Shown here: in pieces, positions 796 through 3,835 of the stretch
How positions within the stretch are numbered: position 1 is the stretch's first letter
Layout of the letters: the number at the start of each line of letters is the position of its first letter
IMG/VR virus record: IMGVR_UViG_2529292882_000010
DNA from: a virus
Lineage: Duplodnaviria; Heunggongvirae; Uroviricota; Caudoviricetes
Length of the DNA: 4,213 nucleotides
Direction: 5' to 3' (one strand)
Translations under genes and position numbers: made by a program
The notes under the pieces: model-generated
Seen by the model: only the letters and a program-made list of their open reading frames with translations
Told to the model about the DNA's origin: nothing
Databases searched by the model: none

Positions 796-1002
796 TTAGC
801 CGTTAGATTTTGCCGAACTGGAAAGTGCCTGTTTAAACTCACTGAAGCTGAGAGCTTCTTCGCCTTCGGCAAGGCCTTCGAAGTATTCTTCGTAAGCCTT
901 TTCCATGATTGCGTCGAAATCCATGTTGACCTCATTTCCCCTTAACGCCGGGGTAGCGGAACAAAAACCTGCTGCATAGTTAAAGTTGAACCCTGCCGTC
1001 AT
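796..1002 (-). CDS. small acidic hypothetical protein (68 aa from ATG at 1002; 42 aa if initiated at internal ATG at 924)
   Basis: Seen in sequence: two candidate starts. ATG at 1002 has GAGG about 10 nt upstream. Internal ATG (complement of 922-924) has GAGG at 5 nt spacing, arguably the better RBS. The C-terminal 42 aa are strongly acidic. No arginine-rich N-terminus, so not an N-type antiterminator. Function unknown. Confidence 0.45.
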   Translation of the reverse strand: MTAGFNFNYAAGFCSATPALRGNEVNMDFDAIMEKAYEEYFEGLAEGEEALSFSEFKQALSSSAKSNG

Positions 1003-1105
1003 GTTCTTACGCCTCGGGCTGGCTACTTAACCCCTGACCACTACCTGGTAACTCGAAGTATTGCCCGGCATTCTGTGGGGTGGAGTGGGTTGGTATGAAA
1101 GGAAG

Positions 1106-1154
1106 GATACCCATGGGTATCTAAAAAGTAAATACCCATGGGTAATTTTTTTTT
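1106..1154. promoter_or_regulatory. candidate OL-type operator pair: two copies of palindrome TACCCATGGGTA, then a T9 tract
   Basis: Seen in sequence: perfect 16-bp palindrome GATACCCATGGGTATC at 1106-1121 (core 1108-1119) and a second TACCCATGGGTA core at 1133-1144, centres 25 bp apart, followed by T9 at 1146-1154. Same TACC/GGTA half-sites as the three sites in the divergent region at 1630-1680. Inference: repressor binding sites. The second palindrome plus T-run could also act as a weak intrinsic terminator on the + strand. Confidence 0.55.
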
Positions 1155-1189
1155 GAGGTGTCTTAACTGGTGATTGGTTGTTTGGTTAG

Positions 1190-1609
1190 TTATGATGCGT
1201 TTTGTGCTTTCTTTTTACGGATTTCTTCGTAGATCATATTGTAATACTGTTTTTTCTCTTCAAGAGTTTTTAATAAGTTATCCGCTTCACTTTCTGGCAG
1301 TTCGTCTAAGAGATCTAAAAAAATACGTTGTCGTGGCGTTAGAACCCTTGTTTCATAATTGGAGGCTGTGTTCGTTGATGATGAAACGATACCATCCATC
1401 CATCCTCGGGGTAACCCAAAGGACTCTTCGATAATCTCCACCATATCATCAGCGATCCGTTTTTTTCCCTTTTTCCCCTCTGGGTACAACATTCTTGATA
1501 CATAAGAAGGCTCGCGACCGATTTTTCTGGCTACGTTAACCGCTTTACCATCGCATTTCTCATCACGAATTTTGATGAGTTGCTGTCGTCTAAATTCATA
1601 TTTGTCCAT
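1190..1609 (-). CDS. prophage immunity repressor, short Cro/CI-type HTH protein without S24 peptidase domain (RacR-like by position)
   Basis: Seen in sequence: 139-aa ORF divergent from a cro-like gene across a 100-bp operator-bearing intergenic region. The N-terminal segment KAVNVARKIGREPSYVSRMLY fits a helix-turn-helix, and the C-terminal region is charged and coiled-coil-like. At 139 aa it is too short to carry a LexA/CI-type autocleavage domain. No Shine-Dalgarno upstream of the ATG. Confidence 0.8.
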   Translation of the reverse strand: MDKYEFRRQQLIKIRDEKCDGKAVNVARKIGREPSYVSRMLYPEGKKGKKRIADDMVEIIEESFGLPRGWMDGIVSSSTNTASNYETRVLTPRQRIFLDLLDELPESEADNLLKTLEEKKQYYNMIYEEIRKKKAQNAS

Positions 1610-1615
1610 AGGTAA

Positions 1616-1685
1616 ATAATAGATGCGATTACCGCAAGGTAAACAACCTGCAGGTATTGACTTTTGTTTACCTGTGGGTATTCTT
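1616..1685. promoter_or_regulatory. divergent OR-type control region: three TACC-N4-GGTA operators with candidate pR and pRM
   Basis: Seen in sequence: TACCGCAAGGTA (1630-1641), AACCTGCAGGTA (1645-1656, with perfect inner palindrome ACCTGCAGGT) and TACCTGTGGGTA (1669-1680). Rightward candidate promoter: -35 TTGACT (1657-1662), -10 TATTCT (1679-1684), overlapped by the third operator. Leftward candidate promoter on the - strand: -10 TATTAT (complement of 1616-1621), -35 TTTACC (complement of 1638-1643), overlapped by the first operator. Promoter calls are inference from consensus matching only. Confidence 0.55.
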
Positions 1686-1709
1686 TACTGTGTTTACTAA
1701 GGAGTAGCT

Positions 1710-1991
1710 ATGGAAGAATTAAGAATATTTCTCAATTCTCTTTCGTCAGATGAACAGCGTATGTTTGCATGCGAGTGTGGTACCAGCATCGGTTATCTAA
1801 GAAAGGCATTGAGTAAAGGTCAGGTGTTAGGGGCATCGTTATGTGTCCTTATTGAGCGAGCCAGTAATGGTGAAGTTACACGTCAGCAACTAAGGCCTTT
1901 TGATTGGATGAATATTTGGCCCGAGCTGGAAGATACCAAAACGTTAACACAACCACTTTCTAGGAGCTTGATTCATGAAAATCAAGCATGA
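1710..1991 (+). CDS. ydaS: Cro-like HTH protein (YdaS-like)
   Basis: Seen in sequence: 93-aa ORF, ATG at 1710 with AAGGAG (1699-1704) at 5 nt spacing, first gene rightward from the operator region. Contains the HTH-like segment GTSIGYLRKALSKG and the motif VTRQQLRPFDW, which I recall as typical of YdaS/Cro-like prophage proteins. Overlaps the next gene by 17 bp. Symbol assigned by family resemblance and gene order, not by verified identity. Confidence 0.7.
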   Translation: MEELRIFLNSLSSDEQRMFACECGTSIGYLRKALSKGQVLGASLCVLIERASNGEVTRQQLRPFDWMNIWPELEDTKTLTQPLSRSLIHENQA

Positions 1992-3371: not shown

Positions 3372-3391
3372 GTGTTTATTTCAGCTCATGA

Positions 3392-3407
3392 GGTAATTTT
3401 CAGGAGG
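3392..3407 (+). promoter_or_regulatory. copy 1 of repeated RBS-containing junction module GGTAATTTTCAGGAGG
   Basis: Seen in sequence: the 16-mer at 3392-3407 is identical to 3809-3824. It contains AGGAGG immediately upstream of the TTG start at 3410, only 2 nt away. Confidence 0.6.
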
Positions 3408-3409
3408 AC

Positions 3410-3835
3410 TTGTGGCAAAAGTATTTACACAAGAAGAGCGGGAAAAAAATTAAGGGGCAGATTGTTGAACTTGTACGTCTGAGCGGTCGCGAGACGTTAC
3501 GGCAACTGGAAGCGAAAACAGGTGCGACAAGATATCTGATGAGTGTTCTCGCCAGAGAGCTGGTTGCCAGTGGCGATGTATACAATTCTGGCTACGGGTT
3601 ATTTCCGTCTGAACAGGCTCGTAAGGACTGGCAAAACGCCCGCAAAAAACTATCGAGGGCAAAGGCGAAGAAACCGGTTGTGGTTGATCCGGACCTTATC
3701 TGGTCATTACCAGACGGAGAAATACGCCGCTACGACAGGAGCCAGAACATAATCTGTCGCGAGTGCCGGAAGAGTGAGGTTATGCAGCGAGTGCTGGCGT
3801 TTTATCAGGGTAATTTTCAGGAGGTGATGGCGTGA
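3410..3835 (+). CDS. hypothetical phage protein (141 aa) with a predicted winged-helix-like N-terminal segment
   Basis: Seen in sequence: the only open frame here. It must start at TTG 3410, because there is no in-frame ATG or GTG before residue 44 and the N-terminal segment (IVELVRLSGRETLRQLEAKTGATRYLMSVLARELV) looks like a real HTH or winged-helix fold. The basic middle and C-terminal CxxC are noted. The stop TGA overlaps the next start as GTGA. Family not recognised. Confidence 0.65.
   Translation: MWQKYLHKKSGKKIKGQIVELVRLSGRETLRQLEAKTGATRYLMSVLARELVASGDVYNSGYGLFPSEQARKDWQNARKKLSRAKAKKPVVVDPDLIWSLPDGEIRRYDRSQNIICRECRKSEVMQRVLAFYQGNFQEVMA
3809..3824 (+). promoter_or_regulatory. copy 2 of repeated RBS-containing junction module GGTAATTTTCAGGAGG
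   Basis: Seen in sequence: identical 16-mer at the 3' end of CDS 3410..3835, where it encodes GNFQE. AGGAGG (3819-3824) lies 7 nt upstream of the GTG start at 3832. Confidence 0.65.

Follow-up and report, generated by a model that had tools for sequence, protein, structure and literature searches.

A predicted five-site operator set in the immunity region of a Rac/Qin-like Escherichia coli prophage

Introduction

What a short palindrome that occurs five times around a small repressor gene is for, and which protein reads it, is the question raised by a 4,213-nucleotide (nt) stretch of Caudoviricetes DNA (IMG/VR record IMGVR_UViG_2529292882_000010). This stretch, referred to at its full length as the window, is part of a lambdoid, Rac/Qin-like Escherichia coli prophage. 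A sequence-only reading had proposed that four perfect copies and one near-perfect copy of the dyad TACC-N4-GGTA constitute the operators of a lambda-like switch, two of them lying 3′ of the repressor gene (left operators, OL) and three in the 100-bp gap between this gene and a divergent cro-like gene (right operators, OR). Every coordinate given there is correct, and the layout is as described. The sequence comparisons reported below indicate that the five palindromes are almost certainly binding sites of the prophage repressor that controls the lysis-lysogeny switch. It is very probable that they are the operators of a lambdoid immunity switch and that the protein bound to them is the 139-residue repressor encoded between the two clusters. 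The operator role proposed earlier is upheld by the overlap of the sites with promoters, their fixed geometry in related loci, their co-inheritance with the N-terminal domain of the repressor, and a control phage, Tritos.

Five dyads in two clusters

Exact matches to TACCNNNNGGTA occur four times in the window, at 1108-1119, 1133-1144, 1630-1641 and 1669-1680. The sequence-only reading had expected fewer than one such match by chance; 200 dinucleotide-preserving shuffles of the window place the expectation at 0.04, and none of the 200 reached four. The fifth site, AACCTGCAGGTA at 1645-1656, differs from the motif at one position. When up to one mismatch is allowed, seven matches are found against 0.93 expected, the two additional ones (2149 and 4199) being intragenic and unclustered. 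The four central bases of the site are also constrained, following the order Y-R-Y-R (Y, pyrimidine; R, purine) across 175 related sites, and the flanks prefer T or A, so that the pooled sites give the 14-bp consensus tTACCYRYRGGTAa.

The sites, the promoters that they overlap and the two flanking regulatory genes are as follows (ORF, open reading frame; HTH, helix-turn-helix; pL and pR, leftward and rightward promoters; pRM, repressor promoter):

1104..1132, minus strand: inferred pL, read from the sequence; -35 TTTACT (1132 to 1127), 17-nt spacer, -10 TATCCT (1109 to 1104)
1108..1119: OL1-like operator, TACCCATGGGTA; exact match, within the spacer and -10 of the inferred pL
1133..1144: OL2-like operator, TACCCATGGGTA; exact match, adjoining the -35 of the inferred pL
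1190..1609, minus strand: CI-like repressor gene; 139-aa ORF encoding an HTH domain (aa 1-74) that is joined by a disordered linker (aa 77-87) to a DicA-like helical hairpin (aa 89-138)
1616..1643, minus strand: pRM-like promoter; -35 TTTACC (1643 to 1638), 16-nt spacer, -10 TATTAT (1621 to 1616)
1630..1641: OR3-like operator, TACCGCAAGGTA; exact match, overlapping the pRM -35 and spacer
1645..1656: OR2-like operator, AACCTGCAGGTA; one mismatch, exactly between the back-to-back -35 hexamers
1657..1684, plus strand: pR-like promoter, which would drive the cro-like gene; -35 TTGACT (1657-1662), 16-nt spacer, -10 TATTCT (1679-1684)
1669..1680: OR1-like operator, TACCTGTGGGTA; exact match, in the pR spacer and reaching the pR -10
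1710..1991, plus strand: cro-like (YdaS-family) gene; 93-aa ORF matching PHROG 35 'transcriptional repressor' (E 5e-23)

Promoters and switch architecture

A consensus scan of window positions 1000-1760 called two promoters, the pR-like and the pRM-like one, and placed their hexamers where the outer OR sites had been said to overlap the pR -10 and the pRM -35. Several dyads overlapping both pR and pRM, in a short (100 bp) gap between divergent repressor and cro-like genes, are features of a lambdoid switch. The OR2-like site is centred about 41 bp from both inferred transcription starts, and the -35 TTGA(C/T) adjoining it is conserved across loci, which also have a -10-like hexamer at OR1.

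The pRM -10 ends 6 nt before the repressor ATG at 1609 (window 1607-1621), and a leaderless repressor mRNA is therefore predicted. This feature would be conserved across the family: 26 of the 41 related loci have 6-7 nt between a -10-like hexamer and the start codon of the repressor, and no Shine-Dalgarno sequence. Given a leaderless start, the centre of OR2 lies at about -41.5 relative to pRM. The cI mRNA of lambda is leaderless, and lambda CI activates pRM from OR2, a class II activator position. A leaderless mRNA has also been shown for paaR2 of CP-933P, a prophage of E. coli O157:H7 (PMC8630535).

At the other end of the repressor gene, the OL pair repeats the arrangement of OR2 and OR1, with OL2 adjoining a -35 and OL1 covering the spacer and -10 of an inferred pL whose transcript would start near 1097. 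In related loci the hexamer directly after OL2 reads TTGACx, TTGATx or TAGACA, and where the pair is present the counterpart of OL1 always overlaps a -10-like hexamer. At the sequence level at which it was examined, the window therefore has a second operator cluster at a leftward early promoter.

A two-part repressor

The repressor matches PHROG 5736 'transcriptional regulator' (E 5e-70), and its RefSeq name is 'hypothetical protein'. Database searches show it to be a two-part mosaic. Residues 1-74 are 64-85% identical to the N-termini of aligned 221-242-aa LexA/S24-family CI repressors from Salmonella, Yersinia, Edwardsiella, Pantoea, Klebsiella and others, and over residues 89-134 the protein is similar to the C-terminal end of DicA (33% identity over 46 aa, E 1e-7). 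NCBIfam's model for DicA (NF007257) matches at its positions 79-131 only, at 24.1 bits against a cut-off of 101. A Pfam scan of the repressor found no family, including no PF00717 (S24), which the relatives of 221-242 aa do carry; in place of the C-terminal autocleavage domain of a lambdoid CI there is a helical segment of ~50 aa. The earlier description of the repressor as short and non-cleavable is thus supported at the level of domain content.

By sequence, the repressor gave only insignificant matches to PDB chains (E > 0.07). An AlphaFold model has a mean predicted local distance difference test score (pLDDT) of 85, rising to ~90 over aa 1-70, with compact N-terminal helices at 3-18, 23-30, 34-40 and 54-63 and a hairpin at 92-138. 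In Foldseek searches the modelled N-terminal domain superposes on C.Esp1396I with a root-mean-square deviation of 2.2-2.6 Å over 66-71 columns, and it also matches the N-terminal domains of the lambda repressor and TP901-1 CI. On the evidence of this model, the domain has an XRE/lambda-repressor-like HTH fold outside Pfam coverage. The putative recognition helix residues S35, Y36, R39 and M40 are invariant, which fits the invariance of the TACC half-site.

Some E. coli alleles of the repressor (P0009-P0019, 135-136 aa, 82% of the query aligned) have a different N-terminus of ~45 residues and identical C-terminal two-thirds. Each looks like a frameshifted or recombinant repressor that would be without the recognition helix.

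Conservation of the layout across related loci

One genome per species was searched with an alignment of the N-terminal domain alone, which yielded 41 species-level loci spanning Enterobacterales, Aeromonas, Neisseria, Burkholderiales, Nitrosomonadales and Xanthomonadales. With the window and the phages mEp043 and CharmingMan, these make a set of 44 loci. The repressors of mEp043 and CharmingMan have only the N-terminal domain in common with that of the window (76% and 70% identity, respectively). Both phages carry the five sites. In each, the three OR copies of TACC-N4-GGTA are spaced 15 and 25 bp; the spacing of the leftward pair is 25 bp in mEp043, where it falls at the annotated putative pL, and 26 bp in CharmingMan.

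The same geometry recurs throughout the set. Sites start 73, 48 and 33 bp (+/-2) upstream of the repressor ATG, the equivalents of OR1, OR2 and OR3, in 38, 34 and 37 of the 44 loci, respectively, and a downstream pair 24-26 bp apart is present in 33 of the 44. The 41 species loci together contain 114 exact sites in 246 kb, compared with 3.4 expected from base composition. Fifty-nine of these fall in the 66-bp OR zone and 44 in downstream pairs in which both members are exact; of the remaining 11, 10 are one half of a pair with an imperfect partner, so that 113 of the 114 are placed. In no locus is the pRM-proximal half of the middle site, 48 bp upstream, perfect; read in locus orientation it is GGTT, GGGA or GGTC, to which the AACC of the window corresponds. 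The mismatch of this site is thus a conserved design feature and not decay.

Phage Tritos served as the negative control. Its repressor is of equal length and closely similar in the C-terminal half, whereas the N-terminal HTH domain is a different one, and its 5.3-kb immunity locus contains no exact TACC-N4-GGTA and none of the near-matches found in the other loci. Neither YdaT nor the DicA-like tail co-varies with the sites. In Tritos the exchange of the N-terminal domain is accompanied by absence of the sites; it is therefore with this DNA-binding domain that the operators travel, and neither the flanks nor the C-terminal domain goes with them. Tritos DNA is ~95% identical to the window from 1000 to ~1096, unalignable over 1097-1190 and alignable again in the 3′ half of the repressor gene.

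The mosaic junctions relative to Tritos (locus L004, 2495-2850) lie at window ~1097 and within 1190-1350, pointing to recombination at the start of pL and, within the repressor gene, between the parts that encode its two domains.

Variation within E. coli

Of 5,426 complete E. coli genomes, 822 carry window positions 1000-1760 at >=80% coverage. When 40 distinct E. coli haplotypes spanning window 1050-1760 are compared, variation is seen at 4 of the 40 TACC/GGTA core positions, for three of the four in only 1-2 haplotypes. Outside the sites, 50 of 180 intergenic positions vary (Fisher p = 0.024), and so do 12 of the 20 positions in the site centres (p = 8e-5 for core against centre). Most changes in the centres are transitions preserving Y-R-Y-R. 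This pattern fits recognition by a protein of the outer four bases of each half-site, with a tolerant centre that is probably read by shape.

Weighing the operator interpretation

Several points weigh against reading the five dyads as operators of a lambda-type switch bound by the repressor. Among the related loci, L025, L042 and L046 have no exact site, and L033 and L039 lack most of the layout; the N-terminal domains of these five are 38-67% identical to that of the window. The inferred pL agrees with the consensus at 8 of 12 positions, which is below the scan threshold, and was not called. Its position is supported because the hexamers at the equivalent place are stronger in related loci (TTGACA-like; TATATT or TAATAT) and because the Tritos mosaic junction falls at ~1097. 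In a literature search that covered few subscription journals, the motif strings appeared in no phage-context paper. Nothing relevant on the operators of mEp043 or CharmingMan was found in it either; the operator sequence and the DNA-binding domain are not described in the literature covered, and an earlier description is possible. Lambda-type pairwise cooperativity, or looping between OL and OR, may be beyond the short DicA-like C-terminal domain, and the dynamics of the switch could differ from those of lambda, as they do in 933W. Finally, Cro co-varies with the sites as well, 33 of the 41 loci having a divergent gene for a homologue, and comparison alone would not fully separate repressor from Cro as the protein that binds them.

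The last point bears on the possibility that only the Cro-like (YdaS-family) protein, or another factor, reads the sites and that the 139-aa protein binds a different sequence. The Cro-like protein scores 25.8 bits (E 9e-6) against Pfam YdaS_toxin (PF15943), with a cut-off of 30, and carries the RefSeq name 'transcriptional regulator' or, for one allele, 'YdaS family helix-turn-helix protein'; its identity is 73% with mEp043 gp51 and 50% with the Cro of CharmingMan. Besides the co-variation, recognition by Cro alone can appeal to CP-933P, in which the footprints of YdaS and PaaR2 overlap and their exact recognition sequences are unresolved (PMC8630535). The eight loci without a Cro homologue are those with an atypical OR, and four of them, all from Klebsiella (L007, L010, L011 and L012), are informative because they keep the 73- and 33-bp sites, the middle site being absent. 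Three of the four (L007, L011 and L012) also keep the OL pair, and L010 has one downstream site only. These loci keep sites without Cro, which argues that nothing beyond the repressor domain is needed to explain the sites. Moreover, the search that recovered the sites used the repressor N-terminal domain alone, Tritos loses the sites as it exchanges that domain, and no other repeated dyad is evident in the 100-bp intergenic region. Recognition by Cro or another factor only is accordingly judged highly unlikely, and the repressor is retained as the protein that very probably binds the sites.

The Klebsiella OR (L007 and L010-L012, 2900-3000) has TTTGCTATATTTT in place of the middle site, which suggests a two-operator derivative with a different partner gene.

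A different objection concerns the OL pair, which might serve mainly as an RNA hairpin that terminates the repressor transcript or transcription of the plus strand, the latter with the T9 run at 1145-1153. The two identical palindromes at 1108-1144 would fold to a 16-bp stem (dG -25.4 kcal/mol, z = -5.4), the consensus scan flags the region as terminator-like, and an A/T tract beside OL2 is conserved in related loci. The site centres speak against a stem maintained for termination: across 33 loci the complementarity between the centres of OL1 and OL2 is no better than in shuffled pairings (p = 0.61), and the commonest E. coli haplotype has unlike centres (position 1115 is A in 32 of 40). The 13-14-bp spacer holds a conserved -35 and the distal site a -10, mirroring OR2 and OR1 at pR, and the minus-strand tract after the stem (CCUUCCUUU) makes a poor U-run. 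Termination was rejected as the main function of the pair, there being no co-variation of site centres across the 33 loci, and is very improbable in that capacity; a secondary terminator role is possible.

A run of nine T residues lies on the plus strand of the window at 1145-1153, and in most related loci (L006-L045) an A-rich tract (CAAAAWWWT in the pL direction) is found directly upstream of OL2. This tract could be a UP-element-like feature of pL or the T-run of a plus-strand terminator that uses the OL hairpin.

That the cluster is a chance or compositional artefact, or a functionless remnant repeat, has in its favour only that palindromes with CCATGG or CTGCAG are common restriction sites, and has next to no probability given the shuffles, the 113 of 114 exact sites at the same two positions in 41 independent loci, and the conservation within E. 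coli of core positions beside centres that vary mostly by transitions keeping Y-R-Y-R. A chance origin is excluded by the shuffles and the cross-locus positions.

Proposed mechanism

With the five dyads taken as operators of the repressor, the most likely mechanism is lambda-like, comprising repression of pR and pL, activation of pRM and autorepression of pRM. That the repressor binds the sites, fills them in a certain order, activates pRM and acts cooperatively, and that the switch is bistable, is inferred from the sequence. The 139-aa protein would bind the 12-14-bp dyads as a dimer, through its N-terminal XRE-like HTH domain. Occupancy of OR1 and OR2 would shut off the rightward cro-like, ydaT-like and replication genes, and occupancy of OL1 and OL2 would repress pL, which reads into a ydfA-like (DUF1391) gene. 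Repressor bound at OR2 would activate pRM, as lambda CI does from that position, and the overlap of OR3 with the pRM -35 would provide negative autoregulation at high repressor levels. The Cro-like protein would probably compete for the same sites.

Neighbouring genes and a probable further control point

The genes to the right of the switch encode a YdaT-family (CII-like) protein, an O-like replication protein, and DUF977 and DUF4406 proteins, and on the other side, next to the OL pair, is a DUF1391/YdfA-type gene. Further left, the closest genome, that of the related strain C5, has dicB on the same strand, recE-type genes and an integrase gene. The ydaT-like product (141 aa) matches the structures 3c4r and 8bt1 (E 1e-87 and 6e-79) and Pfam YdaT_toxin (40.4 bits, cut-off 21). 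One further operator-like element is found beside its gene:

1968..1985: YdaT (CII-like) operator, TTGATTCATGAAAATCAA; exact TTGATT-N6-AATCAA covering the 3′ end of the ydaS-like gene and the ydaT start codon

In CP-933P the high-affinity YdaT site OM was DNase-footprinted at the end of ydaS (PMC9986795). The repeat at 1968-1985 has the same motif and position as OM, so that the window combines YdaT, a tetrameric, POU-like counterpart of CII, with a TTGATT-N6-AATCAA operator at the end of ydaS, as in a CP-933P-type module. The repeat is probably a pRE-like control point. The five dyads had been said to make up the complete cis-regulatory logic of the immunity region. The operator set stands, but the exact YdaT operator lies beyond it, and the five sites are therefore not the complete logic. 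Completeness was overstated also in that no induction route is visible within the window: no antirepressor gene, SOS-controlled or other, is visible there, and the LexA box CTGT-N8-ACAG has only two one-mismatch matches in the window, which is chance level. An Rfam scan of the window found no RNA family.

Within window 3372-3452, the DUF977/LygF-like ORF is listed from a TTG at 3410, and an in-frame stop, the TAA at ~3450-3452 in aaaaaaattaagg, is in a neighbouring frame near an A-run.

Comparison with known switches

In lambda the operators are 17 bp long, the centres of OR1 and OR2 are 24 bp apart and OL comprises three sites. The window resembles lambda in its divergent repressor and cro genes, in the three dyads between back-to-back promoters, in the second operator cluster at the leftward promoter, in the OR1-OR2 centre distance of 24 bp, in the middle site at about -42 from pRM, and in the leaderless repressor mRNA, here predicted. 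It differs in that its sites measure 12-14 bp and are unrelated in sequence, that OR2 and OR3 are 15 bp apart, that OL has two sites, and that its 139-aa repressor has no S24 domain, a helical tail of ~50 aa and an N-terminal domain without a Pfam HTH match.

A set of three and two operators is also known from 933W, where 10 half-sites make up five natural operators, OR1-3 and OL1-2 (PMC3317979). 933W differs in its DNA-binding domain and operator consensus, its repressor being an S24-type CI, and a tblastn search of the phage collection with the N-terminal domain of the window repressor returned no record named 933W or Stx-converting. No isolated phage in that collection has the whole immunity region.

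PaaR2, YdaS and YdaT of CP-933P form an experimentally bistable system with a leaderless short repressor gene (PMC8630535). Among modules of short repressor, YdaS and YdaT, CP-933P is the closest experimental precedent for bistability, and the window agrees in gene set both with it and with the YdaS/YdaT module of Rac. Window and CP-933P have in common a short CI-like repressor, non-cleavable by its architecture and encoded by a leaderless gene (predicted here), a divergent operon of YdaS followed by YdaT, a pL-type promoter with operators of its own, and the YdaT operator at the same place. The operators themselves differ, as the PaaR2/YdaS consensus is GTTTAGTAA in four 18-bp inverted repeats; the window has a single one-mismatch copy of it where 0.84 are expected, and thus no PaaR2-type operators. 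It also has no counterpart of paaA2-parE2, since the interval from the repressor stop (1190) to the OL sites contains no complete same-strand ORF.

In the module of DicA, DicC and the dicB operon of the Qin prophage, DicA has a similar C-terminal helical domain, and the two systems also agree in the DUF1391/YdfA-type gene beside OL and in dicB, which lies further left in the closest genome; the N-terminal DNA-binding domain of DicA is unrelated in sequence. mEp043 (Aguilavirus) and CharmingMan, conversely, share the repressor N-terminal domain, the Cro family and the five-site layout, but their repressors, of ~225-228 aa, have an S24 peptidase domain and are presumably RecA-inducible. mEp043 further differs in having lambda-type CII and N instead of YdaT.

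The Gifsy repressors are short, have no S24 domain and are controlled by antirepressors. The best structural match of the window repressor is Rep of the Salmonella phage SPC32H (PDB 5d50/5d4z), which is antirepressor-controlled, short and likewise without S24. At TM 0.44-0.48 and 17-22% identity (Foldseek E 1e-3, probability 1.0), this similarity is weak and a lead only.

Implications for prophage immunity

The arrangement is of the ordinary lambda type and leaves the general picture of lambdoid switches unchanged. The operator set is well supported by the sequences compared, and the specificity group that it would define is widespread, with a conserved geometry. For a widespread Rac/Qin-like prophage, the operator assignment yields a testable regulatory map; in strain C5 the cell-division inhibitor gene dicB is among those left of pL. 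The window would in effect share an immunity specificity group with mEp043 and CharmingMan, and cross-immunity is predicted between prophages that carry cleavable and non-cleavable versions of the same DNA-binding domain. This would have consequences for superinfection exclusion and for the induction of prophages in mixed lysogens.

The most interesting aspect is the conservation of the geometry across changing C-terminal domains. It may be that the repressor N-terminal domain, the five-site geometry and Cro form one immunity cassette, with a layout kept near base-for-base from E. coli to Neisseria, Burkholderiales and Xanthomonas while the repressor C-terminal domain is swapped between S24 and a non-cleavable DicA-like tail, a proposal to which we give slightly less than an even chance. 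If it is true, the geometry of the switch would be set by promoter architecture, not by the oligomerisation domain, and the family would offer a natural system in which to ask how much cooperativity, looping and the mode of induction matter for a lambda-type switch.

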